Shown: positions 6,501-26,110, counted from the first letter of the stretch. The stretch is 64,000 nucleotides of DNA from Desulfomonilia bacterium (GCA_050014195.1 JBEKDT010000004.1:128001-192000), one strand, 5' to 3'. A program made the numbers and translations. The notes: a model not told the origin generated them from the sequence alone.

Positions 6501-6802
6501 GGCAGGCAGTCCATGATGCATAAGCCGAGTGCATCCTTTTCGAACAAAGCGGGCTGTGTGAAACCCGGCAGGATGCGCGAGAACATGTCCAGCACAAAGG
6601 CATTGGGAAAGGGCCAGCTCACGTTCGCGCATATGCCGCTGCCGCGCGCCAGCTCCATGGAGAGCCAGCGCTGCATGCCGCGGCTCTGCACCACGATGAC
6701 CTCTGGGGCCAGCGGCGAAGAGAGCGGCTCGGCCAAGGACGCAGCAAGGGCCTGCGAAAGGACCTCGAGCCGGTTGCTCTCAATGAGTCTCAGGCCTGAC
6801 AA
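3530..6802 (-). CDS. recC: Exodeoxyribonuclease V gamma subunit
   Basis: 1090 aa; SNRLEVL, IVVQSRGMQRWL, NPCREYW, CHSPMREVEVL, PMRSIPFKVICLMGMN motifs; TTG start with GGAGG RBS; directly upstream of recB. Confidence 0.97.
5689..5730. repeat. Same palindromic element family, in-frame inside recC (opposite orientation)
   Basis: Minus strand reads atcccccctctcctcaatcctctcccaccaggggagaggaag and encodes NPPSPQSSPTRGEE. Confidence 0.75.
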
Positions 6803-6838
6803 CAGACGCCTCCGTGCATGGAATTAAAAAGTGGGGAT

Positions 6839-6847
6839 AGTATAGCA
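6839..6847 (-). promoter_or_regulatory. Candidate extended -10 promoter of recC
   Basis: Minus strand TGCTATACT (TGnTATAAT-like) ~37 nt upstream of the start; conserved as TGTTATACT in the relic copy at 15872-15880. Confidence 0.45.
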
Positions 6848-6877
6848 TGGAAGACTCGTTCTGTGGGTGGAGAAATG

Positions 6878-6906
6878 TGGCAAAAAAGGGGACATTTATT
6901 TTTACT
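6878..6906. repeat. REP-like motif A (tggcaaaaaaggggacatttattttttac)
   Basis: Near-identical copy at 37951-37978. Confidence 0.65.
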
Positions 6907-7003
6907 TCACCTATGGTCGTAAGAAATCGGCATTAAGCAATAGGACCGAATTTATACACCGCACTTTTTACGGCACCACTCAGCCATAAGAGCGAAGATA
7001 GGA

Positions 7004-7052
7004 AGATGGGAGTCAGGTCTTGCTTTTTGACTATTCCGTGTGAATCCGGGGA
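7004..7052. repeat. REP-like motif B, copy 1
   Basis: agatgggagtcaggtcttgctttttgactattccg..atccgggga; direct-repeat copy at 25192-25240. Confidence 0.7.
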
Positions 7053-7075
7053 TAAATTGATAAACATCCCCTTTC

Positions 7076-7360
7076 TTATGCTGCACGGCTCAGGCTGATG
7101 CGCATACCTGCCCTGGTCGCCAGAGTGATGAGCATCTCCAGGCTGAACTTCTCCCACTTGCCCCGGACAAGGTCCGATACCCGGGACTGGCTGATGCCGA
7201 GCATCTGAGCTGCCTGGGCCTGCGTGACCTTCTTCGCCTCTATGAGTGTGCGCAGGTCAGCCATTAGATCGGCACGCATCTTCAATATCGCTGCCTCGTC
7301 CGGGGCGAACCCCAGGTCGGTGAATACATTTCCCGAAGATTTCGTTGAGGTCTTTTTCAT
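7076..7360 (-). CDS. HigA-like XRE HTH antitoxin
   Basis: SSGNVFTDLGF N-terminus, TQAQAAQMLGISQSRVSDL HTH, FSLEML; downstream of a RelE-like toxin. Confidence 0.88.
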   Translation of the reverse strand: MKKTSTKSSGNVFTDLGFAPDEAAILKMRADLMADLRTLIEAKKVTQAQAAQMLGISQSRVSDLVRGKWEKFSLEMLITLATRAGMRISLSRAA

Positions 7361-7363
7361 ATA

Positions 7364-7678
7364 CTACACTCCTATCTGTTTGTATCTCATGCGGGCCAGC
7401 TCTATATCCTTCAGGTTTGTCTTTCTCCCTTTCTTGTGAAACGAGTGCAGAACATAGACAGCATCCGCACGTTTCGCCACGTAGATGATCCGCCATTCTC
7501 CAAGCACATGTATGCGGATCTCCTTCACACCTTTTCCTATTGTCTGCATGGGCTTCCAGTCACTGGGTTCTAAACCACATTGCACGGCGTAGAGCTCAAA
7601 GCCTACAGCCCTACGCACTTCCATGGGAAAATCACGCAGGTTATCAAGGCTTGATCCCATGAACAATAGAGCCTTCAT
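7364..7678 (-). CDS. RelE/HigB-like (Gp49/DUF891) toxin
   Basis: FMGSSLDNLRDFP, WKPMQTIGKGVKEIRI, YVLHSFHKK; toxin-first order typical of higBA. Confidence 0.88.
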   Translation of the reverse strand: MKALLFMGSSLDNLRDFPMEVRRAVGFELYAVQCGLEPSDWKPMQTIGKGVKEIRIHVLGEWRIIYVAKRADAVYVLHSFHKKGRKTNLKDIELARMRYKQIGV

Positions 7679-7882
7679 GGGATTATTATATAAGTTTTTA
7701 TATATCTGGCAACATTAATTTCATACGGACAACCAACCCCCTTATGCCTTGGAGTGGAGAATAATATACTGCTATTTTAGGGATTGACAGACGGAAACAA
7801 ATCTGTCTAAAAATGTGCCTCATGTAGTCTTTGTTATGTTTACCCTCGCAAAACTCTTGCGAGACTGAGGAGGTTGTTTCCA

Positions 7883-10800
7883 ATGAACAACACTTGCCGT
7901 GTCAGGACACGTGTCTATTCGTTTGTTCCCAGGCTGGTGTCGGTCTTGTTCCTCATCTTTCTCTTCCTTGTACCGCTGAGCCCGTCAAAGACGAGTGGAA
8001 AATCTGCTGAAATAACCTGCACCCCTGATCCCCATAACGAGATCGCCACCGACAAGAACCTTCCGCTCGGGTGCGAGATGACCCTGAGCAGTTCTTTTTA
8101 CCACGAGATCCAGGGCAATCCCCTTCTGTATGAATGGTACGGACCGTTCTCTCCGAGCACCATATCGGAGCCGGAAGTGTTCATGCCCGAAGGGACTCAT
8201 GCAGTCTCCCTGCTTACCTTTGACGGCGTGCAACGCTCTGCCCCCCACGTCCTCTACATCACGGTCGATCCGGCATTCTCCATTTCCGCCGCTGCAAAGA
8301 AGGGGAAGGTAGTTGTCACGTGGCCCCATGTGCAGGGGGCCACTCGCTTTGACATCTACCGCGCCAAAGAGAGCGACCCTAGCCGATTCGAAAAGATTGC
8401 AGAGCTCCCGGCAGCAACAACCTCCTATACGAATGTAAACCTATGCGATGCAACCTATCTGTATGCCGTGGGTGCGTTGTCAAACAGGCAGTGGCTGTAT
8501 TCTCAGGTCAAGAGCTCTCATCCGTATTTAACATCCCCGATGTGCAATTACCCGCCTGTCATATACTCCGCACCCATAACCAAGGGCATTGTGGGCCTGA
8601 AATACACCTACGACGTGCAGGGGTCAGATCCCTTGGGGGACATGCTCACCTACAGCCTCTTAAGCCCACCGGCGGGCATGAGGATAAACTCCCAGAGCGG
8701 TCTCATCGAATGGACACCTCCTTCCCTGGGAGACTATGAGGTTACGGTCAAGGTGAAGGACTGCAAGGGCTCATACAAGATACAAAAATTCATCATTGAG
8801 GTGGATGAGCTCCCCGACATCAACAGGAACCCCATTGCCGATGCAGGCGGCCCATATGCCGCAGAGGTGGGCCAGCCGATATCTTTTGACGGCTCTTCAT
8901 CCTATGACCCTGACGGCGATCCCCTCCTGTATGCATGGATCTTCGGAGACGGCTCAAGCGGAAACGGGGCCTCTCCGAGCCATGCATATGGTGCTCCCGG
9001 AACATACCAGGTTACGCTCACGGTCTCTGACGGAAGGGGCGGAACCGCGACCGATGCAACCACAGCAAGCATTCAGCAGTGCCTGCCGCCAACAGTAGGC
9101 TTCTCTTCGAACCCGGCGGCCATACGGCAGGGCGAGTCATGCACCTTGCTCTGGACATCCAAGAATGCCTCCACCCTCAGTATCGACCACGGCATCGGAG
9201 ACGTGGGTGCATCGGGAACCATCACAATACAGCCACAGGCCACTACCACCTACACGATCACCGCAACAGGCCGCTGCGGGACGGCTGCAGAGTCTGTCAC
9301 CGTCATTGTCCATTCTCCGCCTGTTGTTCATTTGACCGCTGTCCCGGGGTCCATTGCGGCAGGGCAGACATCTAAGCTCTCCTGGACATCCGAGAATGCG
9401 GATACGGTAACCATCGACCAGGGCATCGGCCCGGTGACGCCGAACGGCTCTCTCGCCGTAGCTCCCACATCTACCACAACCTACACCATTACTGCTTCCG
9501 GGCCCGGAGGGACTGCAACCGATAGTGCAACAATCACGGTATACCAGCCGCCGCATGTAAGCCTGACCTCCCAACCCCAAGCAATCGCCGAAGGCGGGGC
9601 ATCAATACTCACCTGGACATCCGAGAATGCCGACTCTGCCTTCCTGGATAACGGCCTGGGCAATGTCGCCGTGAACGGATCGCTGGCGGTTTCCCCTGCA
9701 GAGACGACAACCTACGCAATAACGGTCCAGGGTCCCGGAGGCACGGCAACAGCCAGTGCTTCAGTAACCGTGCTTCACAAGCCGGCAGTCATCATTGCGG
9801 CCTCACCCGACACCATCGACGCAGGCGAGACCGCCACCCTGACTTGGACTTCCACCAATGCCGATTCCGCATCCCTTGACCAGGGCATAGGGGCCGTGGA
9901 GGTGAACGGCAGCCTGCAGGTGAGCCCATCCGAGACGACCACCTATACCATCACTGCAACAAGCCCCGGAGGCATTGCAACCGCCTCTGTGCCGGTCGGG
10001 GTCAACCACCCGCAGCTGCAAAGAAAGGCCTGCGCATACATCACGAACATGGAGAGCGGTGATGTCACGGTGGTGGATATCTCCACGAACAGTATCATAA
10101 CCCGTATCCCGGTGGGCACGGCACCCTACGGCGTTGCCGTGAGCCCTGACGGCGACCGGGTATATATCGCATGTGGAGGGAGTGACGGCGGGATATATGT
10201 CATTGATACCATTACCAATACGGTGGCAGGCACCATAGAAGGAATATATGCGACCACCCTGGCAGTGAACCCGGATGGATCGATCATCTATGCCGTGTCA
10301 GCCGTTGACGGGACACTCACGGCTATCGATGCACATTCCCATGGGGTCATCGGGGTCGTTCAGACAGGACCGTCGCCTTTCGGGATAGCTGTAAAACCCG
10401 ATGGAACAAGGATCTACATCACATCCATGGAAGATGGCACCATGAGGGTGATCGATGCTGCAACCTTGGCAGTCATAGACACCGTGCAGATTGTATACAC
10501 GGGGAAGCCCCTCTGGGATGTCGAGGTGAGCCCCGACGGGGCATTTGTGTATGTGGTGTCGAGTGATTCATGCCTCCTCGCCGTCATCGACACGAACACG
10601 GATGCTTTCGTGAACTCACATTTTTACATGCCCGAGAGGCATCTCGGAAGATGTTATCTTGCTGTGAGCCCTGATGGAAACCGCATATACCTGAGCATAA
10701 ACAATAGCACCTATTCCGCAGGATCGGTCTATGTCATTGACACACTCTCCCTTGGTGTTGTGAACAGGATTACCGCAGTATCCCCTTCGGACCTGTCATT

Positions 10801-12712
10801 CACCCCGGACGGAACATTCCTTTATGTGCCCGATAGCGGGGCAAACGGCGTCATGGTCATCGATTCCGGGTCAGACTCAGCGGCTGCTTTCCTGGGAGAC
10901 GATTTCAGCCGCCCCACGACCTGCGGCCATTTCATCACGAAACATAGGGAGCGGATTACCGGCAGGATCGTGGCCGATGGCGCGGGGGTCGAGGGAATCA
11001 TGGTCACGCTCACCGATGGCCGCATGACCTGGAGCTGTCCGACCGATGCACAGGGACGCTACATTTTCTATGCACCGCCCGGCAGCTATACCCTTTTCTT
11101 TTCCGGCAGGGGATATGCATTCGCGCAGCAGAACCTGGCAGTGAATGTCAGCGACAGGGAGATATCCATCACGGATACCGAGGTGCTTCTGGGCGTGAAG
11201 ATATGGTCGGAGCCCGGTTCAATAGCATCCGGACGAACGGCACTCCTGCTCTGGAGCTCGATCAAGGCTTCAAGCATCACCATAGACCAGGGCATCGGCA
11301 GTGTGGGAACGAGCGGTTCTTACGCAATATCTCCAAACGAGACCACGACCTATACGATAACCGCTTTTGACGGCCAGGGCAGGACAGTGACTGACCAGGT
11401 GACGGTGACCGTCTTCCCTCAGCCCCAGGTGAATATCAGTGCGGAGCCGCAGGTAATTTTGAAAGGACAGCCTGCCACCCTGTCATGGACGAGCACCAAT
11501 GCGGATACACTTACCTTGGGGCCATACGGATGGAATCTGGAGAACATCGGCTCTATCACGGTATTCCCTCAGGAGACCACGACCTACACCATTACCGCTT
11601 CAGGTCCGGGCGGGATTGCCACCGCCTCTGCCACTGTGACCGTGTATGAGCCGCCCCAGGTCACTATCTCAGCAAACCCCCAGACCATCTATGCAGGTGA
11701 ATCCTCTCTTCTCACCTGGTCCTCTTCCAATGTAGATCATGTCAGCATCGACAACGGCATCGGCAATGTGGAACCCGGCGGCTCAATGACCGTGAACCCC
11801 GCAAAGACCACGACTTATACCATCACCGCATCAGGCCCGGGCGGGGTCGCCGAGGCTTCAGCCACCCTGACCGTGAACAGCATCATCAGCCTCCACATCG
11901 ATTCCCCGGCAGAGGGAGCCCTCATCGACAGGCCGGACATCCTGGTGAAAGGCACCATGACAAACGTATACGGCAATGAGACCGGGGTGACGGTGAATGG
12001 GGTTCCGGCTGTCATTCATGGGGACAGGTTCTTTGTGAATCATGTGCCGCTCTCTCCAGGAGAGAATTCTCTGATAGTGCGGGCCGCCGATGTTCAAGGG
12101 AATGCTTCCGAAGTCGTTATTCCCCTTGATTGCGAGGTTACAGGGCCTTACATCACCCTGTCCGTCAATGATGCCGCGGGTATTTCACCATTCGAGTCAA
12201 TATTGAGGGTGGAGTCCTTCTTCGAGCCTGACAGCCTTACCTTCTCAGATTCCGGTCCCGGACAGATCGAGTATCTTGACGGATCGGATACGAATGAACG
12301 GCTCATAAAAATCCCAAATGCCGGAGTCTATTTCATTACGGCAAGGGTTTATAAAACCGGGGTGCTCTATACAGATACAATAGGGACTGTTGTACATGAC
12401 CGGACAGAACTTGATGGGATGCTCAGGCAGAAGTGGGCAGGCATGCGCACTGCCCTCCTGAATAATGATATTGATACGGCAGTGAAAGACATATCAAGCA
12501 GGACAAAAAATATATACCGGAATGCATTTGGCTATCTCACCGACAGCCAAAGAAGCAGCCTGGTGAATGAAATTGGTGACATCCGGCTCATCAAGATGAG
12601 AGGCACCGGAGTGGAATATGACATCCAGACAACAAGGGATGGTACCCTTTACTCATACATTCTTCTCTTCGATCTGGACGAAGACGGGATGTGGAAGGTC
12701 GCAAACTTTTGA
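7883..12712 (+). CDS. Large secreted multidomain surface protein (FN3/Ig-like, PKD, 7 Ig-like repeats, YVTN beta-propeller)
   Basis: ATG 7883 after GAGGAGG; hydrophobic N-terminus; PKD motif ADAGGPY..FDGSSSYDPDGDPLLYAWIFGDG; seven ~77-aa repeats W.S.NA..ID.GIG.V...GS..P..TTTYTITA; AYITN / AVSPDG propeller blades. Confidence 0.85.
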   Translation: MNNTCRVRTRVYSFVPRLVSVLFLIFLFLVPLSPSKTSGKSAEITCTPDPHNEIATDKNLPLGCEMTLSSSFYHEIQGNPLLYEWYGPFSPSTISEPEVFMPEGTHAVSLLTFDGVQRSAPHVLYITVDPAFSISAAAKKGKVVVTWPHVQGATRFDIYRAKESDPSRFEKIAELPAATTSYTNVNLCDATYLYAVGALSNRQWLYSQVKSSHPYLTSPMCNYPPVIYSAPITKGIVGLKYTYDVQGSDPLGDMLTYSLLSPPAGMRINSQSGLIEWTPPSLGDYEVTVKVKDCKGSYKIQKFIIEVDELPDINRNPIADAGGPYAAEVGQPISFDGSSSYDPDGDPLLYAWIFGDGSSGNGASPSHAYGAPGTYQVTLTVSDGRGGTATDATTASIQQCLPPTVGFSSNPAAIRQGESCTLLWTSKNASTLSIDHGIGDVGASGTITIQPQATTTYTITATGRCGTAAESVTVIVHSPPVVHLTAVPGSIAAGQTSKLSWTSENADTVTIDQGIGPVTPNGSLAVAPTSTTTYTITASGPGGTATDSATITVYQPPHVSLTSQPQAIAEGGASILTWTSENADSAFLDNGLGNVAVNGSLAVSPAETTTYAITVQGPGGTATASASVTVLHKPAVIIAASPDTIDAGETATLTWTSTNADSASLDQGIGAVEVNGSLQVSPSETTTYTITATSPGGIATASVPVGVNHPQLQRKACAYITNMESGDVTVVDISTNSIITRIPVGTAPYGVAVSPDGDRVYIACGGSDGGIYVIDTITNTVAGTIEGIYATTLAVNPDGSIIYAVSAVDGTLTAIDAHSHGVIGVVQTGPSPFGIAVKPDGTRIYITSMEDGTMRVIDAATLAVIDTVQIVYTGKPLWDVEVSPDGAFVYVVSSDSCLLAVIDTNTDAFVNSHFYMPERHLGRCYLAVSPDGNRIYLSINNSTYSAGSVYVIDTLSLGVVNRITAVSPSDLSFTPDGTFLYVPDSGANGVMVIDSGSDSAAAFLGDDFSRPTTCGHFITKHRERITGRIVADGAGVEGIMVTLTDGRMTWSCPTDAQGRYIFYAPPGSYTLFFSGRGYAFAQQNLAVNVSDREISITDTEVLLGVKIWSEPGSIASGRTALLLWSSIKASSITIDQGIGSVGTSGSYAISPNETTTYTITAFDGQGRTVTDQVTVTVFPQPQVNISAEPQVILKGQPATLSWTSTNADTLTLGPYGWNLENIGSITVFPQETTTYTITASGPGGIATASATVTVYEPPQVTISANPQTIYAGESSLLTWSSSNVDHVSIDNGIGNVEPGGSMTVNPAKTTTYTITASGPGGVAEASATLTVNSIISLHIDSPAEGALIDRPDILVKGTMTNVYGNETGVTVNGVPAVIHGDRFFVNHVPLSPGENSLIVRAADVQGNASEVVIPLDCEVTGPYITLSVNDAAGISPFESILRVESFFEPDSLTFSDSGPGQIEYLDGSDTNERLIKIPNAGVYFITARVYKTGVLYTDTIGTVVHDRTELDGMLRQKWAGMRTALLNNDIDTAVKDISSRTKNIYRNAFGYLTDSQRSSLVNEIGDIRLIKMRGTGVEYDIQTTRDGTLYSYILLFDLDEDGMWKVANF

Positions 12713-12797
12713 ACTATCCCGTTGCGATTGAACATCTGCTAAGGGGTTGTGATGGTATCATTACAGGTACTACAGGGCTTGTTTTGAAAAAGGGGGA

Positions 12798-13547
12798 ATG
12801 GGAATGCTGACAAAAAAGGCATGTCTGATACTGACCATGGCGATGCTTCCTCTCGGTCTTATGGGTGCAGACCTGTTCGGGAATGTGACATTCAGGGGCA
12901 AGGTGATCGATGCAGACACCCTCAAACCCATCGAAGGGGCGGTGGTAGTGGCCGAGTGGGAGAAATGCCACCCAGGGATAGGTGAAGGCTCATTATGTGA
13001 TTTCAAGATGGTTAAAGAGACACTGACAAATGCTTCTGGTGAGTGGAGCATCACAGGGCCACAAGGTGATAGTTTACCTAGTAAGACTCGGGAGATTCTC
13101 GGGTTCATCGTATCATGGACAGCACCGCCTCGTTTTCAGATCTACAAACAAGGGTACTGCAGACTTCACCAGAAACCAGGCGGATTACATGCATATCCAT
13201 ATGTAAATAAAGAAAAGAGGTTGGAAGGGATCGTATTGGTCCGCATGGGTGATACGAAAGAAGAGGAAAATGAATTTATGAAACAATATCTTCTAGAAGG
13301 TTTCGTTCCTTTTATTCCAGTTAAGGATCCGGAGAGGAAGCTTCGGGAGCTGAATTTCGACTTTCGATACCCTCCTGATGTTATGAGTATAAGGGATGTT
13401 TGGGAAAACACTATGTATGATGTAATCGGTTTAAAGAAGGCAGTGACACAAGAAGAAAAGAAGGAAGCGGAAATATTGCCTGCCACTGTAGATCATTGGA
13501 TTTATCTGCCTCTGTTAAGGAAGACAGTTGAAAATAGTATGAAATGA
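12798..13547 (+). CDS. Exported protein with carboxypeptidase-regulatory-like N-terminal domain
   Basis: Signal-like N-terminus, then FRGKVIDADTLKPIEGAVVVAEW. Confidence 0.7.
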   Translation: MGMLTKKACLILTMAMLPLGLMGADLFGNVTFRGKVIDADTLKPIEGAVVVAEWEKCHPGIGEGSLCDFKMVKETLTNASGEWSITGPQGDSLPSKTREILGFIVSWTAPPRFQIYKQGYCRLHQKPGGLHAYPYVNKEKRLEGIVLVRMGDTKEEENEFMKQYLLEGFVPFIPVKDPERKLRELNFDFRYPPDVMSIRDVWENTMYDVIGLKKAVTQEEKKEAEILPATVDHWIYLPLLRKTVENSMK

Positions 13548-13572
13548 TTGCTGAAGAGGAGGTCTTGGTGAA

Positions 13573-16228: not shown

Positions 16229-16230
16229 TC

Positions 16231-17378: not shown

Positions 17379-17400
17379 TTAATAAATAACAATAAAAAAT

Positions 17401-18540: not shown

Positions 18541-18602
18541 AAAGATGGGGTCAGAGTCCATTTTCTTCTTTAGAAAAATAAATCGTTTCTGACCCTATTT
18601 TT
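18541..18602. repeat. REP-like palindrome family C (GGGGTCAGA...TCTGACCC)
   Basis: Inverted arms; relatives at 25257-25282 (half), 28614-28660 and 43441-43490. Confidence 0.8.
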
Positions 18603-18603: not shown

Positions 18604-18749
18604 CGGCTCTGCACTACAATGACCTCGGGGGTGAGCGGCGAGGAGAGCTGCTCGGACAAGGACGCAGCAAGTGCCTGTGAAAGTACCTCGAGCCGGTTGC
18701 TCTCAATGAGTCTCAGGCCTGGCAACAGACGCCTCCGTGCATGGAATTA
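18604..18749 (-). pseudogene. Diverged recC 5' fragment (41 codons + RBS)
   Basis: 134/146 nt identical to 6681-6826; reads MPGLRLIESNRLEVLSQALAASLSEQLSSPLTPEVIVVQSR, then runs into palindrome C. Confidence 0.93.
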
Positions 18750-19625
18750 CTTTTGCCAGAACCTTTTTATGATTATCTGCCGGGCATAATCTGCAGATTT
18801 TGGTTTGGCAGGGAACAGGCCCAAGACATTTGTTGGGACACCCTCAGGAAATCTATTAAGAATACAAGCGCCACTGGTACCACACCTCTCAAGCACATTT
18901 GTCCAGACACCCTTGGGTGACATTCGCAATGGTTCAACCCATTTTAATGAAGCGCTTTGCCAATTACTCTTGAACTGGGGATCCCATAAATTATTGTCTT
19001 CGAATAACAATTGTCCAGTCTTGGGATTCACAAATGCAAACTTCGAAGTACCATGTGTTGATGAGTGATAAACCCCGAGAACCGCAACTACACAAATGTT
19101 GTTGTTAGTAAAACTTAAATCACTGAGGATCTTATAAGCATATATCTGGTAGTCGAAAAGCTCCTCAGGTTTACCTGTAAGTAAGGAGAACTCATTTCGA
19201 TTAGTACCCTTAAATGACAATTCGAAAATAAATGGTTGATTAGGATCTTTGGTTAGGATGTCTAGTGATACAACCCCTTTACCTATTTCAATACCATTTG
19301 TCTGAATCAAGATAGGGACTTTGTATGGCTGATATGCTTCACTTAAACCGTTTAGAACATCAATTAAGCTCGACCACTGGAGTGTAGGTTCACCGCCAGT
19401 GAAACGGATGAAAGCCTTACCTTTGTCGTATAGAATACTTCGTGTCCCATCTATTATTTCTTTTGAAGATAATACATGCGAAGGATCATCTGTCTCCATT
19501 GGCCTAGATGCTGGACTCCAGCAAAAGTGGCAACTGAGATTACATCCCGAAAAATCCCACCGGATTTCCTGATACTCTCCATAGAAGAAACTTCCGGGTG
19601 AGTACTTCTTTCTTATCCTGAGCAT
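18747..19625 (-). CDS. Radical SAM protein (COG5014-like, no SPASM)
   Basis: FYG....GCNLSCHFCWS, RFTGGEPTL, IQTNGI; last gene of the MTase-HerA-NurA operon. Confidence 0.8.
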   Translation of the reverse strand: MLRIRKKYSPGSFFYGEYQEIRWDFSGCNLSCHFCWSPASRPMETDDPSHVLSSKEIIDGTRSILYDKGKAFIRFTGGEPTLQWSSLIDVLNGLSEAYQPYKVPILIQTNGIEIGKGVVSLDILTKDPNQPFIFELSFKGTNRNEFSLLTGKPEELFDYQIYAYKILSDLSFTNNNICVVAVLGVYHSSTHGTSKFAFVNPKTGQLLFEDNNLWDPQFKSNWQSASLKWVEPLRMSPKGVWTNVLERCGTSGACILNRFPEGVPTNVLGLFPAKPKSADYARQIIIKRFWQK

Positions 19626-19736
19626 CCTTTGGATACCTCTTTTTAAAAAGTACTTTATTGTATGGTTAAGGTCTCATTTACTATTTCAGTAGATTCTCTT
19701 TGGCAAAGGTTTGTAAAATTTTTTGGCTAGGAAAAT

Positions 19737-21029
19737 CTAAACTGATACCAACTTGTTTGCTAGAGCAACTGGAATAAGAGAGTTATCATACATGTTACAC
19801 CTGAGTTCAGCGATTAGAGAGAGGATCTCCTCCAAGTGTGGTATGTCTGCTGATCTTGGTTCTGCAAGATAAGAGGTTGCAGGAACAGTTAAAACGTGCA
19901 TTTCTCCACCAGAAGCTCGGTAAAATATTTTCTGGCCGTAATAGGTGTTCTGGCCATAAGATACCCCAGCTTCACCCGGTATGATATACTTACGAATATA
20001 TGAGTCTCCAACTATGAAATATGATCCCTGTTCCATACAATCCTGGATAGCTGCTGCATGCTCGACGAATGCGCCGCTCTTTTCAAGACCTGCTAAACGA
20101 ACTGTTGGACCAGTAGGTCCTCCAGGCTGGCTTAGCAAGTGTGAAATAAGCTCTCTCATAGGTTTGTAAAGGGGCGCCACTAGACCGAAAAAGGCGAGAG
20201 GACCATCTTTGATGAAGAGTATGTTTCGCATTAGGCTTGGCTTGAGGTGTTCAAGAATGTCATGGAATAGATGTACTAAGATGAGCTGCTCAAGCATTGT
20301 CATTAAATAAGAAATTATTCCACCTGCTCCGAGTTCTTCGTCAATGCGCTCATGTAATCTAAAAGTGTCTGTCAGGTATATTGGTTGATTGCATCCAGGG
20401 CATTTTTTATTAGTTGGATCACCATACTTAAAAGTAATATTGTCATGACCACAATTGTATGGGCAGTGAGCTATTGTTTCTTCATAGTTATTGTCTTGTT
20501 TACGCATCCAGCGACGGAAGAGAAACCATTGAAGACTGTCGATAAGCTTTTCACCTTCACCATGTTCCTTAATAAAAAAATCATATATGGTTCGCCGGAT
20601 TGTTGCAGACAGGGACGTTTGATCTTTATGACGAATACCCTTTGTTGGTATAACAAGTGAGTAGCGCTCTATCTTCTTTAGCCGTGCTAGATCTTCTGGG
20701 GCAATAAACCTTTTGCAATCAAGGGATCGTAGGTCTGAAAGCTCAAATAGTAATGGACCGAATGTAAAGAATGTAATCGAAGCTGAAGGATACTCTTCAC
20801 GCACAAAGGTTTCAGTAAAACCACCATCAATTGCAATTACTGCTGAGACTTCAGAAGTATCTACATTGTCAAGAATGGTCAGATAAGGCTCTAAAAACAG
20901 AGAGTCAGGTGCTGAAGGAATGATGCATTGATCAATATAAGCCTGAACATTAGGATTCTTGATTATTTCAACATGAGCGATCTTACTTGCTCGTTCAATT
21001 GGTTTACGGCCCTTTGATGAATATCCCAC
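19737..21029 (-). CDS. nurA: NurA-family nuclease (C-terminus probably frameshifted)
   Basis: AIDGG, IKDGPL, GLEKSG, IPVALANKLVS motifs; CPYNC/CPGC Zn ribbon; directly downstream of HerA. Confidence 0.8.
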   Translation of the reverse strand: MGYSSKGRKPIERASKIAHVEIIKNPNVQAYIDQCIIPSAPDSLFLEPYLTILDNVDTSEVSAVIAIDGGFTETFVREEYPSASITFFTFGPLLFELSDLRSLDCKRFIAPEDLARLKKIERYSLVIPTKGIRHKDQTSLSATIRRTIYDFFIKEHGEGEKLIDSLQWFLFRRWMRKQDNNYEETIAHCPYNCGHDNITFKYGDPTNKKCPGCNQPIYLTDTFRLHERIDEELGAGGIISYLMTMLEQLILVHLFHDILEHLKPSLMRNILFIKDGPLAFFGLVAPLYKPMRELISHLLSQPGGPTGPTVRLAGLEKSGAFVEHAAAIQDCMEQGSYFIVGDSYIRKYIIPGEAGVSYGQNTYYGQKIFYRASGGEMHVLTVPATSYLAEPRSADIPHLEEILSLIAELRCNMYDNSLIPVALANKLVSV

Positions 21030-21031
21030 CT

Positions 21032-22960
21032 TTATTGCCCCTTCAACACTGTGAATCGATCAATTTGAACAGGTACAATGAAGGCATTGGAATATGTCTT
21101 CATACGAATAAAGCCTTTGTCTGTTGTTCTTCGTAAGCTATCAACAAAGTCTTCATAATCGTAATACTTGGCTATCTCTCTTAATTCATCTCTGTTGTTT
21201 AGGTGTGAGACAAACCAGTTCTGGGTGTTCTTTAGCACGTTGGCCGAAATAGAACTTACCTCTTGCGTTGCATAGATCAATCCCAACCTGAGTTTAGCAC
21301 CTTCCTTTGCAATCCTGTTGTATATCAATGTTAAGTCAGCCTCATTCTTTTTAGGAAACAGGTTATGTGCTTCTTCGAAGTACATCTGAATGAAGTTAGC
21401 TGGTTCGTTGTTGATGAATCTTTTCATAGCATCACTGAAGATAGCTCCACATAGGCGATCAGAATACGTTCTCTGAATTTTAGGATCACCTTGCGACAGA
21501 TCAATAATTACAACCTTCCCTTCACGTAATAAATCAACTACCTCCTCTTCATAAGACTTCTGGAGTGTTGAGGTGTGAAGGTTGCGGATAGGTATTAGTT
21601 TTCGAAATCCAGCCTCACTTGCTTGATGTCCAGGAGAAGGTTTTCTTGTAAGGAACCTCATCAAGCTCTGCAAGTCATCATCAGCCCATTCGTGATTGTG
21701 ACTCGTTCGATAATTGCTGAAATATTGGTCGGTATTGTAATTATCCCAAACCCAGGTAAACCAACGTATAGTCTCGTCAACAGTAAGACCATCTTTCGGA
21801 TTCAATCCAACAGCATTGTTGATATGCTCCGTTCCAACAAATTTAATCTTATGTTTTTGAGGAATAGTGAAACCAGCATTGCCAAGTATAGCTTGGTAGC
21901 AGGCTTTACGCCTTCCATACCTTGTTGTTGCACTTACATCCTGTGAATCAGGTTCCTCCCAATTAACATTCAGGAAGGCTTGGGTATAAATTGCCCTGTC
22001 ATCTTGTAGGTTGGCCCTGATCATCTCAAAGCCTTCAAGAAGCTGCTTATAGAAATTGAGCTTCATTACTTTAAAGCCTGGTTTCTCGAGTATGCTGTAT
22101 CTAGTTACATCATCTTTGTAGAGGTTATAAATGGCGGTACCTTCATCTTGCTGATTGTCATTTGCGTACTCACCATTAACATCAAAGATGATCTGACCTA
22201 TCGGCCCAACTGTTTCTGTATCTAACATTTTCTCTAATGTAGTGATTTCAGCTGTGGCCTTGATTACCATCTTCACTGTATTGGATTTACCAGTACGTGT
22301 CATTCCAAATAGAGCTGTTCGTTTTCCTAGGTAGTCAAGTGCAGAAACATAAACTGGCACTGATGGTCCCTGGGTATGACGCTGACTAGATGCATATCGT
22401 ACCTCACCAATCCTCTGATCACCTGGTCCGCCTGGTAAACCAGCACCTTCTCTGAAGTTTACAATATATTCAAGCACTTTCCCAACTGGCTTATAGATCG
22501 AGTAGTTATTCGGACCATAAAAATTATCTACATCTGCACCAAAGCATGTCTTGCCGTCAGATATACGGTAGAAAGATCCTAGAACACGACATTCAAGGCC
22601 TGAAAACTGGAACTCATACCTAGTGTAGCTATCAAGTTGATTAATCGAAGATTCACTCTCTGCACGTTCTTTGTAGTGATCGACCATGGCAGCTACAACA
22701 TCTGAGTCAGAAGGAAGTGTTGTTGGGCCTAATACACGTAGAAGAATCAGTTCAGGATTCTCCTTATCATTATCAAATATGGCTGTGAGAAAAGAACCTG
22801 CCGGAATACCCCCAATCTTCTCTTTCCAATAATCATTTGATAGCACCTTCATTGTGTTAAAGTCGAAGTAAAAGGGGCGGCCAACAAAAGCCTCAGGCTT
22901 GGCTACATCATTGAATAAATCAACAGTTGCAAGCTCCTTTAGTCTTTCCTGAAGTGACAT
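21032..22960 (-). CDS. herA: HerA/FtsK-family ATPase (DUF87)
   Basis: Walker A GMTRTGKS, IIFDVNGEY, Walker B YFEEAH, RIAKEGAK, ATQ. Confidence 0.88.
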   Translation of the reverse strand: MSLQERLKELATVDLFNDVAKPEAFVGRPFYFDFNTMKVLSNDYWKEKIGGIPAGSFLTAIFDNDKENPELILLRVLGPTTLPSDSDVVAAMVDHYKERAESESSINQLDSYTRYEFQFSGLECRVLGSFYRISDGKTCFGADVDNFYGPNNYSIYKPVGKVLEYIVNFREGAGLPGGPGDQRIGEVRYASSQRHTQGPSVPVYVSALDYLGKRTALFGMTRTGKSNTVKMVIKATAEITTLEKMLDTETVGPIGQIIFDVNGEYANDNQQDEGTAIYNLYKDDVTRYSILEKPGFKVMKLNFYKQLLEGFEMIRANLQDDRAIYTQAFLNVNWEEPDSQDVSATTRYGRRKACYQAILGNAGFTIPQKHKIKFVGTEHINNAVGLNPKDGLTVDETIRWFTWVWDNYNTDQYFSNYRTSHNHEWADDDLQSLMRFLTRKPSPGHQASEAGFRKLIPIRNLHTSTLQKSYEEEVVDLLREGKVVIIDLSQGDPKIQRTYSDRLCGAIFSDAMKRFINNEPANFIQMYFEEAHNLFPKKNEADLTLIYNRIAKEGAKLRLGLIYATQEVSSISANVLKNTQNWFVSHLNNRDELREIAKYYDYEDFVDSLRRTTDKGFIRMKTYSNAFIVPVQIDRFTVLKGQ

Positions 22961-22975
22961 ATACTTTCATACCTC

Positions 22976-24211
22976 CTATGCCCAGTTCTTCGAGGATGAC
23001 CATTCAATCGGATTTAACCTAGGCAACTTTTTTTTGTTTGTTTTCTGGTGACCCAGGATAAGAATTCTATCAGTCTTTGTGGCCTGTCCACGGGTGTGCT
23101 TCCAGATACGGCTTACCTTATGCTCAGATGGTACTTCATCAACTATAACTGCAATACGATGCCAATCAAGCTTGGATGCAATTTCAGCCCAGACACACTC
23201 AGCAAGATTGGTAATTTTACCAGTACTCTTCTCCATGACATCACCAAAGATTAGACAGAGATATCCATCATCTCGTACGGCCTCCTTAAGTTGCTCTAGA
23301 ACTACATTCATGAATGCAAGGTATTTTCTAAGAGAACTTGTTGAGATAAGCTTTTGATCTACATTCTTAGAATCCTGCTTAAGCATCCATAAGCGTATCC
23401 AATTATATTTTCCATAACGTATAACACTTAAATATGGGGGTGAAGTGAAGACCAGCTTAGCTGGATTATTCCGAAGATCTTTTGGAAAAGGATCTCTCAC
23501 ATCTTGTCTCCAGGCATGTCCTCGTGTCCCATCTTCATTTGGTAAGTGCATCCTAGCCAACTTCGATTCCATTAAATCAAAGACATCAATATAAGGTGGA
23601 ATCAGTCCATTGTCTTTGATGTATCGACGTACGTATCCTGGTGCCATTGAGAATGTGTTTGGCATACTAATCGAAAGACCTCTTGCTGGTCTTCCTGGCT
23701 TATAATTCGCATGCATGATTCCAAGCAGTAGAGCCAATAAGAAACGATCAGTACGATCAGTGCTATTAAGCGAATCACGTAACCATAAGAGTTGCCCAAG
23801 AACAATTGGGTGATAAAGCATTTGGATGTCATCTGGAGCCTCTGCGGGGTTACCAGGGCAACATGCCTTACGGAGTATATGAATTCGGTCAAGAGCCTCT
23901 TTTTGAGAAGGTGGGTTTACCTTTGCACCAGTTAATATGTAAGCTAATGGGTTTGCATCAGAACCAAAGCCAATGCGCCCTAGACGGCATGCCTCCATGG
24001 GGGTTGTACCTCTACCTGAGAATGGATCATAAACGATATCCCCTGCATCAGTCAGCCAGCGGATGAAAACATGTGGAATATGTGGCGGGAACATAGCAAA
24101 ATAAGAGCAAAGAGAGTGCAAGGGATGGCCCCAGCGTCTTGGTGCTATATGCCACTGTTGATTAATATGGCTGGTACATACTTTTAAACTTCGGGCGTAA
24201 TTCTCAGACAA
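22976..24211 (-). CDS. DNA amino-methyltransferase (N4-C/N6-A)
   Basis: Motif I DPFSGRGTT near the N-terminus and catalytic TSPPY later (alpha order); TTG start with GGAGG RBS. Confidence 0.88.
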   Translation of the reverse strand: MSENYARSLKVCTSHINQQWHIAPRRWGHPLHSLCSYFAMFPPHIPHVFIRWLTDAGDIVYDPFSGRGTTPMEACRLGRIGFGSDANPLAYILTGAKVNPPSQKEALDRIHILRKACCPGNPAEAPDDIQMLYHPIVLGQLLWLRDSLNSTDRTDRFLLALLLGIMHANYKPGRPARGLSISMPNTFSMAPGYVRRYIKDNGLIPPYIDVFDLMESKLARMHLPNEDGTRGHAWRQDVRDPFPKDLRNNPAKLVFTSPPYLSVIRYGKYNWIRLWMLKQDSKNVDQKLISTSSLRKYLAFMNVVLEQLKEAVRDDGYLCLIFGDVMEKSTGKITNLAECVWAEIASKLDWHRIAVIVDEVPSEHKVSRIWKHTRGQATKTDRILILGHQKTNKKKLPRLNPIEWSSSKNWA

Positions 24212-24374
24212 AATATGACCTCCATACCCTATGCTCCCAACACCATATATAAATTAAGACACATGTTTGGAGTGGCTGAACAGAAAATACATTAATGATC
24301 AGCATAGAAACCCCTCGTTCTATTGAATAACATTACATTTTTCTTTTACTCCGCCGCTAAATAAGCGTCAATGG

Positions 24375-24444
24375 GAGAAATTGGGGACGGGTTCACATTA
24401 AACTTACCCAACTTTTGAAATATGAACCCGTCCTCGATTTCTCT
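24375..24444. repeat. ~68-nt hairpin element D (REPIN/MITE-like), copy 1
   Basis: Arms gaaattggggacgggttca / tgaacccgtcctcgatttc; inverted copy with conserved loop at 26324-26392, partial copy at 29098-29148. Confidence 0.88.
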
Positions 24445-24447
24445 CCT

Positions 24448-24480
24448 CTTTCTTTCAGGCAGGGCCTTTGAACAGTTCGG
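24448..24480 (-). repeat. Relic copy of the enoyl-CoA hydratase 3' end
   Basis: 30/33 nt identical to 25345-25377 (ELFKGPA* vs ELFKDPA*). Confidence 0.85.
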
Positions 24481-24610
24481 AATTCCGGGGGAATTCCGGG
24501 GACACAATACTTAATTCCGCATAAAATACGGGGACACCATACTAGTTTTTCAGCAATAGATAAATTGGGGCAAGCAAAAATAAAACTGCCCTTTTTTCCT
24601 GTCTCCCTTT
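24481..24610. repeat. Cluster of GGGGACA-type REP-like half-sites
   Basis: aattccgggg, attccggggacacaatacttaattc, cggggacaccatac, cctgtctcccttt. Confidence 0.7.
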
Positions 24611-24652
24611 ATGAATGTTGATTTTTAATTAATAATTAATTATATATTCATT

Positions 24653-24940
24653 ATGATCAGTTTCTCCTGGGACCACCGGAAGAGTGTTGCCAACAGACAG
24701 AAGCATGGTGTGTCCTTTGAAGAAGCCAAGACAGTGTTCTACGACGAGCATGCTGTCAGATACTATGACCCGGATCATTCAGGGGATGAAGACCGGTTCA
24801 TCATGCTGGGGCTCAGCTTGCACTTGCGGACTTTGGTGGTGCACCACAGTTATAGACAGGACAATTCGGTCATCAGGATCATATCGGCAAGGAAGGCCAC
24901 CGCATCGGAGGAAGAAGCCTACTGGAAGGAGCGACCATGA
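24653..24940 (+). CDS. brnT: BrnT-family toxin
   Basis: FSWD..K...N.QKHGVSFEEA, IRIISARKAT. Confidence 0.93.
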   Translation: MISFSWDHRKSVANRQKHGVSFEEAKTVFYDEHAVRYYDPDHSGDEDRFIMLGLSLHLRTLVVHHSYRQDNSVIRIISARKATASEEEAYWKERP

Positions 24941-25167
24941 GAAAAGAATACGATTTCAGCAAAATGAAAGCCCAGAAGAACCCGTACATCAAGGATTTGA
25001 AGACCCAGATAACCATACGCCTCGATAGAGAAACGGTGGAGTATTTCAAGGCGCTGGCCAAGAAAACCGGCATGTCCTACCAGAACCTGATAAACCTATA
25101 CCTGAGGGAATGCGCCCAGGCAAAGATGGAGCCCACCATCAAGTTTCACACCTCAGCGGGGTCATGA
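24937..25167 (+). CDS. brnA: BrnA-family antitoxin
   Basis: MRKEYDFS, ITIRLD..VEYFK, YQNLINLYL; ATGA overlap with brnT. Confidence 0.9.
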   Translation: MRKEYDFSKMKAQKNPYIKDLKTQITIRLDRETVEYFKALAKKTGMSYQNLINLYLRECAQAKMEPTIKFHTSAGS

Positions 25168-25191
25168 GATCGGTAACGGCGTATCCTTGGG

Positions 25192-25282
25192 AGATAGGGG
25201 GCAGGTCTTGCTTTTTGCCTATTCCGGCAATTCCGGGGACAGTAGACTACTATTGAAAAAATGGGTCAGAGTCCATCTTCTC
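25192..25282. repeat. REP-like motif B copy 2, plus E-like and C half-sites
   Basis: caggtcttgctttttgcctattccg (cf. 7014-7038), aattccggggaca, atgggtcagagtccat (cf. 18545-18561). Confidence 0.75.
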
Positions 25283-25351
25283 CATATCAACCGTGTGCTT
25301 TTCCGAGAAGCTCATCCCTCTCCCTTTCCCCCGGTAAAACTCTCCTTTCTT

Positions 25352-26110
25352 TCATGCAGGGTCTTTGAACAGCTCGGCATAGATCAGCGCCTGGTTGCGG
25401 TTCTCCACACCCAGGGCCTGCTCCAGGCCGCCGATGTCCATATTGATGTTGATTGCCTCCTTGGTCAGGCGCAACCCTGCCGGGTTCTTACCGTTCATGT
25501 TCCTCGCAAATTCCAGTGCGGTGTCCATCAGAATGTCCCGCTCGACCACGCGGCTGACAAACCCGAGACTCATGGCCTCCTGGGCTGACATGAAATTGCC
25601 GGTAAGCATGAATTCATAGGCCCGGCCCGCCCCGATCATGCGGGGCAGGAAGTAGCTGCAGGCCATGTCAGCACCCCCGAAGCCGATATTGATGTAGGCT
25701 GCCGAGAACCGGGCGTCAGAGCTTATGATGCGGATATCAGATGACAGGGCGAAGCTGAACCCGATCCCAGCGGCAGCACCATGAACGATGCAGACGATGA
25801 CCTGCGGAGCCTGCCGCATCCTGAGCATCAGCTTGGCCATACGGACCTGCGCGTGATAGAACTGATGGGAGTTCATCTTATGCCGGATCTCCATGGCCTC
25901 ATTCATGTCGAGTCCCGCGCAGAAACCTTTCTCTCCGTTTCCCTTCAAGATGATCACGTGAGTGTCCACATCGTTTTCACGCTCGGACCAGAAATGCTCC
26001 AGCTCCATCATCATGTGCTGATTTACTGCATTGTACTTCTCCGGACGGTTAAGAGACAGGATTCCGATGCCCGGCTCGCATGTTTCGTATCCGATCGTTT
26101 CGTAGCGCAT
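25352..26110 (-). CDS. Enoyl-CoA hydratase/isomerase family protein
   Basis: LNRPEKYNA, FCAGLD, GAAAGIGFSFALSSDIRI; start moved to ATG 26110 (GGAGG RBS). Confidence 0.92.
   Translation of the reverse strand: MRYETIGYETCEPGIGILSLNRPEKYNAVNQHMMMELEHFWSERENDVDTHVIILKGNGEKGFCAGLDMNEAMEIRHKMNSHQFYHAQVRMAKLMLRMRQAPQVIVCIVHGAAAGIGFSFALSSDIRIISSDARFSAAYINIGFGGADMACSYFLPRMIGAGRAYEFMLTGNFMSAQEAMSLGFVSRVVERDILMDTALEFARNMNGKNPAGLRLTKEAININMDIGGLEQALGVENRNQALIYAELFKDPA

Follow-up and report, generated by a model that had tools for sequence, protein, structure and literature searches.

An 18.5-kb island of defence and toxin-antitoxin genes, which lies between recC and an enoyl-CoA hydratase/isomerase gene in the genome of a Desulfomonilia bacterium (G000, 4.2 Mb), contains diverged copies of the ends of both flanking genes, which are alleles from other lineages stacked serially in one genome. 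The reading favoured here, to which a probability of about 0.5 is given, is additive insertion-duplication recombination of foreign alleles of the locus, with non-homologous ends that favoured the repeats of a Y1 transposase family. Defence islands are often found at chromosomal hotspots that have no integrase, and this locus offers a readable record of such growth. All positions are counted in the window, the whole 64,000-nt stretch of DNA analysed.

The recC hotspot and its cassettes

The hotspot lies on contig C4 of the assembly. Its left flank is recC (exonuclease V gamma; 3530..6802, minus strand; Pfam Exonuc_V_gamma at 2e-91 together with RecC_C), a gene with a match in 12 of the 14 other genomes of the genus. 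The native recC start, comprising the first 122 nt of the coding sequence and a conserved 78-nt upstream region (6681..6880, minus strand), is the source of both recC relics described below. In an alignment of 11 sequences, the 78-nt block is kept in G000, in its sister species G003 and in G007, G001 and G011, with variable DNA directly after it, and the region upstream of recC is a hypervariable insertion hotspot in the genus; the variable region adjoining recC is called the slot here. The right flank is the hydratase gene (25352..26245, minus strand), whose true start is probably at 26182 and whose G003 orthologue has 276 aa. A preliminary description of this DNA had treated the hydratase as a core flanking gene, a status that does not hold genus-wide, as the gene adjoins recC in G000 and G003 alone.

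Six cassettes fill the island. Cassette a (7076..7678, minus strand) is a HigBA-like pair (Gp49 toxin-like and HTH_37), and both G003 and G011 have this block in their slot at 84% identity. Cassette b (7874..15741, plus strand) encodes a 1612-aa PKD/Ig/beta-propeller protein along with two genes (249 and 722 aa) for which no family was found at E 0.001 or better. Cassette c (16019..16464, plus strand) is hicB-hicA, and cassette d (16740..18474, plus strand; GC 0.30-0.35) encodes a cyclase-like protein and a radical SAM/SPASM protein. Cassette e (18747..24211, minus strand) consists of a radical SAM gene, a 430-aa unknown, a HerA-like ATPase and an N6/N4 DNA methylase; the core of HerA and the 430-aa protein is widespread, with the methylase adjoining it in 31 of 38 loci from other phyla. 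Cassette f (24653..25167, plus strand) is brnT-brnA, in a block that is 94.8% identical in the G002 slot.

Relics of both flanking genes

Relic A (18604..18749, minus strand) carries the first 122 nt of the recC coding sequence and 24 nt upstream of it. It matches the native gene at 6681-6826 over 146 nt with 91.8% identity (E 3e-55) and is closer to the native recC of G003 (95.9%). Relic B (15804..15913, minus strand) holds the first 33 nt of the coding sequence and the 78-nt upstream block, and matches 6770-6880 over 111 nt with 86.5% identity (E 8e-31); it is G001-like, and its homology to the region upstream of the G001 recC extends to 15944, past the end of its homology within its own genome. 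On the other side of the island, a relic of the hydratase stop (24443..24483, minus strand) comprises 12 nt 3' of the stop and the last 29 nt of the coding sequence; here 24441-24483 matches 25340-25380 over 43 nt with 86% identity (E 2e-6), compared with 90% identity to the native end in G003. All of these relics are direct repeats that keep the native orientation and order. The claim of the preliminary description that the island holds extra, diverged copies of the flanking gene ends in native order was thus borne out, with E values from 3e-55 to 2e-6. Its further claim of a weak hydratase-like relic at 16474-16490 is weakened, as this segment belongs to a 41-nt unit that is repeated together with repeat E beside unrelated genes on another contig (C3:83136-83176) and is not secure as a relic formed in situ.

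A whole-genome search with 6681-6880 returned only three places, namely the native start and relics A and B. The three copies share a 55-nt core, of which 29 nt are identical in all three, and relic A has 89 nt of recC coding sequence to the left of this core. G003 and G004 possess independent relics of their own, with other truncation points. In recC, the truncation points lie at 122 and 33 nt in the G000 relics and at about 190 nt in the G003 relic, and on the hydratase side they lie 29 nt into the gene in G000 and 15 nt before the stop in G004. These differing points fit random fragment ends and argue against a fixed att core. Relic A and the native gene differ at just 12 places in 146 nt, which is too short to read the reciprocal hybrids of donor and recipient that a single crossover should leave. 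All the relics are of foreign type. Relics of both flanks from different species suggest that new material was added at the core genes and that older layers were pushed inwards.

Repeats at the cassette junctions

The elements between the cassettes belong to at least four unrelated families (E, E3, C, and P) and occur in both orientations. Next to recC stands the E3 motif AAAAAGGGGACATTTATTTTT (6883..6903, plus strand), a solo terminal repeat of the type associated with long-form Y1 transposases, with 3-4 copies in the genome; the identical 21-mer flanks a transposase remnant on contig C22, and an E3-type repeat flanks an intact long-form gene in G002. As the preliminary description had it, the homology between the native recC upstream region and relic B stops at this REP-like motif, ending at 6880, 2 nt before the 21-mer. 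Repeat F with an E-like head (7001..7052, plus strand) is a direct repeat (83%) of 25189-25239, near both ends of the island, and these are its only two good copies genome-wide. The second copy belongs to a composite block (25189..25281, plus strand) of F, a degenerate E, a single C unit and then the conserved region 3' of the hydratase gene, a block that G003 and G004 also have 3' of their hydratase gene.

Within the island, an E repeat with a 20-nt extension (16476..16516, minus strand) is a 96% inverted match to 24493-24517. The C palindrome (18541..18602, unstranded), a doublet of a low-copy repeat family with the core GGGGTCAG, abuts relic A, stopping 1 nt before it; allowing 2 mismatches gave 10 matches, of which 8 lie on contig C4 and about 8 were judged genuine. 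The P palindrome (24375..24443, unstranded), a hairpin doublet with further copies at 26324-26390 and 29096-29148 and 12 matches genome-wide (7 in doublets), ends at the left edge of the hydratase relic. Beyond that relic, with E beginning 0-5 nt from it, E1 and E2 follow in the same orientation (24481..24550, plus strand), and the head of E1 is duplicated in tandem over 11 nt. The stretch to the left of relic B (15786-15803) does not belong to a repeat family.

Three of the 11 copies of E in G000 fall in the island, an enrichment with P about 2e-5, and 69-76 copies occur in two genomes of another family. Copies of E are singlets or direct pairs in G000, while inverted doublets occur in G002, G007 and one metagenome contig, and in G002 and G007 small cassettes are separated by E arrays of one orientation. 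By DNA folding, P is strongly structured (-20 kcal/mol, z -6) and C moderately so (z -3), and no stable hairpin was found for E alone. The description of E as REP-like is genuine in that inverted copies flank a Y1 transposase gene, but it does not extend to a stable hairpin in E itself.

In G000, four of the six relic edges are no more than 5 nt away from the edge of a repeat family, compared with 7.8% of intergenic positions in the island (binomial P about 5e-4, in a post hoc comparison confined to the island in which two edges come from one relic). Repeats abut three of the five far-end junctions (G000 relic A, the G000 hydratase relic, and the G004 relic), and in all three the relic meets the outer side of the repeat; the far-end junctions of relic B in G000 and of the relic in G003 lack one, which shows that a repeat is not essential. 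Thus, the proposal that alleles were spliced in side by side at REP-like sites is upheld as regards foreign, stacked alleles, but the repeats account for only those three of the five junctions. CGG is present at all three G000 breakpoints.

Additive recombination as the preferred explanation

Under the preferred reading, the hotspot would grow by addition, without replacement of alleles. DNA of a related species, bearing another version of the locus and a short piece of a flanking gene, would be joined by homology either through 55-146 nt of the recC start and promoter block, which include the 29-nt identical core, or through 41 nt at the hydratase 3' end, and the second end of the incoming DNA would be joined without homology. 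This could take place by circularisation of a linear fragment followed by one crossover, or with homology at one end only. Each event would leave a working gene end beside the core gene and would shift the truncated copy and the older cargo inwards; cassette e, which is bordered by a recC relic to the left and a hydratase relic to the right, would be the oldest layer. The non-homologous ends would fall preferentially at the outer ends of the terminal-repeat or REP elements of the resident Y1 (RAYT/TIRYT) family, where nicks, breaks or hairpins probably form most readily.

The layout is that of a single crossover, in that the insert lies between direct repeats, with the distal copy cut short at the fragment end and the proximal gene intact. 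In the E. coli experiments on linear DNA reported in PMC3240628, most such DNA was circularised and then integrated through one crossover, which left part of the homologous gene duplicated; this route was about 10 times commoner there than homology-facilitated illegitimate recombination. The latter typically has 3-10 bp of microhomology and usually a deletion in the recipient, and the overlap at 18603/18604 and 24483/24484 is at most 1-2 nt. The preliminary description had inferred an accretion mechanism that it did not recognise as described; established single-crossover integration, as presented in PMC3240628, accounts for the relics. Against the preferred reading, the hydratase offers just 41 nt of homology for a crossover, and the three junctions that coincide with repeat ends are unaccounted for by a crossover model alone. 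A search for relatives with the cargo of one unit alone between hydratase and recC had been proposed; the ancestral arrangement sought, recC and hydratase with cassette e alone between them, was not found in the 14 other genomes of the genus, the 38 HerA loci and four metagenome contigs.

The Y1 transposase family and its possible role

A search for a Y1_Tnp/RAYT gene flanked by the motifs of the island, suggested as a check, was successful. On contig C5 of G000, a 155-aa protein scores 48.6 bits against Pfam Y1_Tnp (cut-off 23) and has HVHLL and YIELNP motifs, and inverted E copies lie 27 nt and 43 nt outside the open reading frame. The E core GGGGACAC and the C core both fit the TIRtron motif GGGGWSAS (PMC3733652), and the family thereby shows the features of TIRtrons/TIRYTs, namely a gene with terminal inverted repeats, GGGGWSAS, and dispersed E copies. 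Adjoining the hydratase gene, just beyond the right border drawn in the preliminary description, is what remains of a long-form Y1 (RAYT/TIRYT-type) transposase gene, 36 codons from its 3' end (26211..26321, minus strand); 25 of 34 residues are identical to the C-terminus of the intact long-form gene of G002 (E 2e-14), which has Y1_Tnp. Further transposase remnants lie on contigs C22 and C13. In G031, 24 transposase matches accompany 69 E motifs, numbers which indicate that the family can be active.

An alternative that refines the idea of the preliminary description, and which we regard as possible but unlikely, is that a Y1 (RAYT/TIRYT-type) HUH transposase itself makes the joints as part of an integrase-free platform for cassette capture. 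Acting on incoming or resident single-stranded DNA, the enzyme would cut an E- or C-type repeat at its outer end and transfer that end to the end of a flanking gene, with homology resolving the other end. The intact gene with its inverted E copies, the remnants, the shared GGGGWSAS core, the copy numbers in G031 and the same-orientation E arrays of G002 and G007 are all in its favour, as are CGG at the three G000 breakpoints and the consistent meeting of relic and outer repeat side, which resembles target DNA at a transposon end (for C by analogy only). However, two of the five junctions have no repeat, the repeats at the junctions are of different families (C, E1, E2), and E alone does not fold into a hairpin, the usual recognition target of such enzymes. 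Four sequencing runs showed no excision or skip joints, and the protein reaches 63.9 bits against the NCBIfam model of REP-associated tyrosine transposases (NF047646), below its cut-off of 80. RAYT-type enzymes are not known to move kilobase cargo, and the transposase is a candidate catalyst of the joints. In its broadest form, the proposal is that RAYT/TIRYT terminal repeats give and receive entire foreign alleles of the locus, with the enzyme joining a repeat end to a core gene and homology closing the other side, so that the arrays would constitute an integrase-free, integron-like platform for defence and toxin-antitoxin genes; this form is doubtful.

Other explanations

An improbable alternative to additive recombination is that a single 5.9-kb linear fragment from a G003-like donor, bearing relic A, cassette e and the hydratase relic, entered between resident C and E1 by two non-homologous joins and no homologous crossover. 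Both relics of the unit are G003-like along their length and both ends abut repeats, but two illegitimate joins would be needed in one event, and relic B, the G003 relic and the G004 relic, which come as one relic each, would be left unaccounted for.

Tandem accretion of integrase-less, CIME-like elements is less credible again. Accretion of such elements is reportedly listed in the literature, and here an integrase directed at the recC 5' end would act in trans on the 29-55-nt shared segment as its att core. That segment is common to the three recC copies, and the genome has 16 tyrosine-recombinase (PF00589) matches, none of them on contig C4. Yet no integrase was found in the recC slot of G000, G003 (7 ORFs) or G007, G002 and G011 (31 ORFs), and the relic edges differ at each event instead of forming constant repeat boundaries. 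The 89 nt of coding sequence to the left of the core in relic A would be needless for an att arm, an integrase targeting recC would leave the relics on the hydratase side unaccounted for, and no part of the recC start is better conserved across the genus than this shared core. Within the island, no integrase or transposase Pfam domain was found in the open reading frames, no tRNA was found, and a search of Rfam to E 0.1 gave no match, in agreement with the preliminary description; its statement that no transposase is visible applies inside these borders but not to the Y1 remnant just outside.

The locus is not an assembly chimera, and the units are stacked in series in one genome, as had been proposed. 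Although this is apparently a metagenome-assembled genome, with runs labelled peat and wetland, and short-word contigs end precisely at the shared repeat (6778-6798, 15812-15833, 18692-18714), it is very improbable that strain alleles were strung together over a shared 29-38-nt repeat, as the recC flank is covered to the same depth as each of the three segments, not to their summed depth (14.1 against 14.3, 14.5, and 13.7, with shared repeat words at 27-35, or 2-2.5 times, in run X5), the junctions of C with relic A and of the hydratase relic with E are spanned by contigs of runs not flagged as source (X18 records 13 and 16; X20 records 19 and 24), four metagenome contigs are colinear with 10736-26763 over 13.7-16 kb at 99.98% identity or more, and G003 bears a relic of its own.

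Relation to known systems

Integron cassette arrays and CALINs resemble the island in that their cassettes are self-contained or poor in promoters, short structured sites lie between them, and an integrase is not close by. Here, in contrast, cassette orientation is mixed, several site families occur along with gene-end relics, and no attC-type sites were found by comparison of repeat families and Rfam. Additive stacking without an integrase is retained from the preliminary description, while its term integron-like holds as an analogy only. Tandem accretion and CIMEs likewise stack elements at one site between direct repeats of a target-gene end, some without an integrase, but the island differs from them in its variable repeat edges, its relics of both flanks and the lack of an integrase in five genomes.

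REPIN-RAYT systems and TIRtrons/TIRYTs share with this genome a Y1 HUH gene between inverted, dispersed repeats and the GGGGWSAS core, and their hairpin-forming doublets and clusters have a counterpart, for E, in the inverted doublets of G002, G007 and one metagenome contig; in the accounts of mobility in PMC3116915 and PMC3733652 they move repeats alone, and kilobase cassettes and duplicated gene ends form no part of those accounts. In Neisseria, minimal mobile elements also occupy a slot between conserved genes with strain-specific cassettes, and short inverted-repeat arrays mark their end points (PMC1797815). For the NIME arrays and their dRS3 repeats, that article proposes an exchange in which one crossover is begun by a recombinase specific for the repeats and the rest is completed through homology, and suggests that genes flanked by arrays could be inserted into arrays. 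The idea of recombination assisted by repeat arrays had thus been proposed before. The same article states that NIME arrays are unseen outside Neisseria and that exchange is mostly allele replacement, whereas here the alleles are stacked with relics of their flanks and the repeats are those of a Y1 transposase family.

A further likeness is to insertion-duplication (Campbell-type) and homology-facilitated illegitimate recombination, which combine one homologous and one non-homologous join, leave a truncated second copy and use no dedicated recombinase gene (PMC3240628). Both are known from laboratory constructs, whereas here the process appears to be repeated in nature at both flanks, with donors of different species and a layered 18.5-kb island as the product, and its non-homologous ends favour transposase-associated repeats. 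The break points are linked statistically to repeats that belong to a HUH transposase of this genome, a testable candidate for what makes or directs the non-homologous joins.

The recC-hydratase locus and its cassettes

The host genome comprises 4.2 Mb in 29 contigs, and the metagenome runs containing the region are labelled peat or wetland. The locus is bracketed on the left by recC (3530-6802, minus strand) and on the right by an enoyl-CoA hydratase gene (25352-26245, minus strand), with six cassettes between them and a G+C content of 30-58% across 6.8-25.3 kb as opposed to 61-65% in the flanks. Cassette a is a HigBA-like pair (7076-7678), and cassette b (7874-15741) holds a 1612-aa PKD/beta-propeller protein together with two genes without a family at E <=0.001. 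The 1612-aa protein, of surface type, features two groups of Ig-like repeats (9150-11900) of ~231 nt (77 aa) with 60-77% nucleotide identity. These are followed by hicBA (cassette c, 16019-16464) and by cassette d (16740-18474), a very AT-rich segment (30-35% G+C) encoding a cyclase-like protein with a weak nucleotide-cyclase domain and a radical SAM/SPASM protein that matches prokaryotic viperin models below threshold. Cassette e (18747-24211) carries a second radical SAM gene, a 430-aa unknown, a HerA-like ATPase and a DNA methylase, and cassette f is brnTA (24653-25167).

The 430-aa protein has no match in Pfam, NCBIfam or PADLOC. Its gene and that of the HerA-like ATPase (19737-24211, minus strand) adjoin in most of 38 loci from Myxococcota, Acidobacteriota, Gemmatimonadota, Actinomycetota and others, with HerA at 52-78% amino-acid identity and a methylase beside the pair at 31 of the 38. 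The three genes are probably a widespread uncharacterised defence module, which at other loci does not include the adjacent radical SAM gene (18747-19625).

Conventional mobility functions were sought in the island and at related loci. No tRNA or tmRNA gene and no Rfam match was found, and no integrase, resolvase or DDE domain was detected in the island ORFs, in the seven ORFs of the recC-adjacent slot of the sister species (G003) or in the 31 ORFs of the slots of three further genomes of the genus (G007, G002 and G011), where G002 has the only transposase, a classical IS200-type gene. The absence of integrase, transposase and tRNA noted earlier for the island is thus borne out by ORF-domain, tRNA and Rfam searches.

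Diverged copies of the flanking gene ends

Repeat finding and self-BLAST confirmed the claim that the island contains extra diverged copies of both flanking gene ends in native orientation and order. Two are truncated copies of the recC start: relic A (18604-18749) repeats 6681-6826 over 146 nt at 91.8% identity (E 3e-55), and relic B (15804-15913) repeats 6770-6880 over 111 nt at 86.5% (E 8e-31). The third, a copy of the hydratase stop end (24441-24483), corresponds to 25340-25380 at 86% (E 2e-6). All three repeats are direct and ordered as in the native locus. The recC start occurs at only three places in the whole genome, namely the native gene and the two relics; the three copies have in common a 55-nt core that spans the start codon and includes 29 identical bases.

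A weak hydratase-like relic had also been described at 16474-16490. This stretch lies within a 41-nt unit (16476-16516) that is repeated together with motif E on contig C3 (C3:83136-83176), where the neighbours are unrelated AAA-ATPase and ORF6N genes. In both copies, E has on its inner side ~20 nt similar to the hydratase gene's final codons and stop, and on C3 the hydratase-like stretch is even in frame. The extended unit may have been left by an E element that was at one time mobilised together with part of the hydratase end.

The stacked structure is no assembly chimera. Short-word contigs from four public runs break only at a shared 22-38-nt repeat. The depths in run X5 are 14.1 for the recC flank, 14.3, 14.5 and 13.7 for the three segments, and 27-35 for the shared words; the flank depth is not the sum of the depths of the segments, which are thus not alternative strain alleles. 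The joint between the C repeat and relic A and that between relic and E are crossed by contigs of runs not flagged as source. A scan of metagenome contigs with an exact 28-nt word across the joint of relic A and cassette e returned four contigs, all colinear with 10736-26763 over 13.7-16 kb at >=99.98%. Joints that skip a unit were not found in the contigs of the four runs, an absence that says little because contigs lose rare variants. The head of the E copy beside the hydratase relic (E1, 24481-24503) is a tandem duplication of an 11-nt unit, and one metagenome contig has 13 extra letters of the same kind there, indicating that the unit copy number varies in the population.

Foreign origin and recurrence in relatives

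Judged by sequence, the relics are foreign alleles. Relic A has 95.9% identity to the native recC start of the sister species compared with 91.8% to its own, and the match of relic B to the recC upstream region of another genome of the genus (G001) continues ~30 nt past the end of similarity to its own upstream region. Similar events are seen elsewhere: the sister species has a 267-nt recC relic of its own, located behind a 1.6-kb cargo and beginning ~190 nt into the gene, and in G004 a block of 83 nt that lies downstream of the hydratase gene is duplicated. The truncation points differ at each event. A recC match is present in 12 of the 14 other genomes of the genus, and extra partial copies occur only in the genome studied here (two) and in the sister species (one). 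No donor state, with the cargo alone between intact genes, was recovered: none of the 38 HerA loci of the species collection has recC or hydratase nearby, and all four metagenome contigs of the 28-nt scan carry the stacked structure.

The hydratase gene is not a genus-wide flank. Among the other genomes of the genus, only the sister species has recC and a close hydratase orthologue on one contig, and G002 has no hydratase gene at its recC locus. The 4.9 kb to the right of the hydratase gene (26222-31087), containing an acyl-CoA dehydrogenase with a rubredoxin-like tail and copies of the P repeat at 26324-26390 and 29096-29148, is absent in the sister species, where the hydratase gene is followed directly by the counterpart of 31088, so that the variable zone lies on both sides of the gene. 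In G002, the equivalents of about 35 kb and 43.5 kb are joined via a transposase remnant and a C repeat. The hydratase gene of G004 (L060, G004:C135, ~1100) lacks 37 nt including the stop codon, almost exactly the segment kept as a relic in the present genome, and its reading frame is consequently longer by ~40 codons.

Repeats and a Y1 transposase

The core of motif E, CCGGGGACAC, has 11 copies within one mismatch in the genome, three of them inside the island where 0.05 are expected (Poisson P about 2e-5). The preliminary description had connected such repeats with single-strand transposases, and a Y1_Tnp gene flanked by the same motif does exist: on contig C5, a 155-aa gene lies between two inverted E copies. 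The protein scores 63.9 against an NCBIfam cut-off of 80 for REP-associated transposases, and E alone formed no hairpin in a fold test. Repeats of the TIRtron/TIRYT class are reported to share GGGGWSAS (Di Nocera et al., PMC3733652), a consensus matched by both E (GGGGACAC) and C (GGGGTCAG), and the C5 unit fits this class. P forms a strong hairpin doublet (z -6) and C a weaker one, eight of whose ten matches are on the contig of the window (C4).

Remnants of related genes are found on C22, flanked by a second E variant (E2) and by an exact 21-mer of 6883-6903, on C13, and beside the hydratase gene (26211-26321, minus strand). The last consists of the final 36 codons of a long-form Y1 transposase gene, with an E3-like repeat after it, and shares 25 of 34 residues with an intact 231-aa gene of G002; the same remnant is present in the recC slot of that genome (L063 3-69). 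Given this remnant, the GTG annotated as the start of the hydratase ORF (26245) probably lies too far upstream, the true start probably being 26182. A second putative transposase fragment of 21 aa (6928-6990) was too weak to retain (E 0.019).

In relatives, E occurs as inverted doublets and also as arrays of one orientation that lie between small cassettes. Two genomes from a different family hold 69-76 E copies each. One of these (G031, of the same class) has 24 Y1 transposase matches and 69 E-type motifs, and the element there behaves as an active insertion sequence would, rather than as a domesticated gene in single copy. Another abundant REP family, with core GTAGGAGCG (58070-58146, 3806-3820), whose 12-mers occur 40-53 times in the genome, is absent from the island junctions. 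Two other candidates were discarded: the stretch left of relic B, first taken for a repeat from short BLAST hits, has one weak further match and is therefore not accepted as one, and F, with two copies, is a local repeat and not a family. Profiling 12-mer abundance across the window gave too much noise at a threshold of 5 and brought out only the above REP family at 58070-58146.

Junctions and mechanism

Five far ends, i.e., the relic edges that would have been joined without homology, are readable, and three of them abut a repeat: relic A lies 1 nt from C, the hydratase relic 0-5 nt from E1, and the G004 relic against E2. Each touches the side that faces outwards in the transposase unit (3/3, for C by analogy only). 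Relic B and the relic of the sister species have no repeat at the far end, so that the earlier view of relics joined at REP-like repeats stands for the former three and not for these two. Four of the six relic edges in the present genome are within 5 nt of a repeat edge, compared with 7.8% of island intergenic positions (P about 5e-4, in a post hoc comparison). The break points 18604, 15804 and 24483 fall exactly at CGG or CCGG, and CCG or CGG precedes several E copies elsewhere, a pattern that may reflect a target preference, microhomology with the GGGG repeat head, or chance.

Additive integration is recognised by a short homologous segment that recurs, truncated and in direct orientation, on the far side of an insert; it would proceed either through one crossover with a circularised fragment or through recombination with homology at one end only. 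Linear DNA entering E. coli is reported to be mostly circularised and integrated by one crossover, with the homologous gene partly duplicated, an outcome ~10 times commoner than homology-facilitated illegitimate recombination (PMC3240628). Each event would have inserted foreign cargo beside recC or the hydratase gene and displaced the previous gene end inwards, and the differing truncation points would be the ends of the incoming fragments. Cassette e would be the oldest layer, as it is the sole unit with relics on both sides. Such additive recombination is given a probability of about 0.5. It leaves unexplained the coincidence of three far ends with repeat ends, for which nicking or breakage at repeats, by a resident Y1 enzyme or at hairpins, would be the obvious candidate, and a direct role of the repeats is a real possibility. 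A bolder alternative, that the Y1 enzyme directly catalyses the joints, is rather unlikely.

Relation to known systems and other sites

The closest published idea found is the Neisseria NIME/dRS3 hypothesis, in which a repeat-specific recombinase begins one crossover with incoming DNA and homology finishes the event; according to that account, NIME arrays had not been observed outside Neisseria (PMC1797815). REPIN-RAYT and TIRtron systems differ in that the available accounts concern movement of the repeats only (PMC3116915, PMC3733652). Integrase-free toxin-antitoxin islets have been ascribed to homologous recombination at flanking core genes, with palindromes at empty sites, some of them similar to Tn3 res sites (PMC13617665). 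No account of stacked flank relics with joints at REP/TIR repeats turned up in the limited literature covered, which is no proof of absence. The finding combines known kinds of process and element: hotspot turnover, insertion-duplication and RAYT/TIRYT repeats.

From 145 local repeat pairs listed genome-wide, two places were examined. At C15:86.6 kb, what E abuts is not a gene end but another miniature inverted-repeat element. The other, C4:47000-64000 (L105), is a second mosaic region on the contig of the window with several C repeats, where a PIN-type toxin gene has a truncated copy (50244-50449 vs 63168-63373, 78%), E2 lies at 50550, and a 140-nt upstream block is duplicated at 47721-47860 and 50597-50737.
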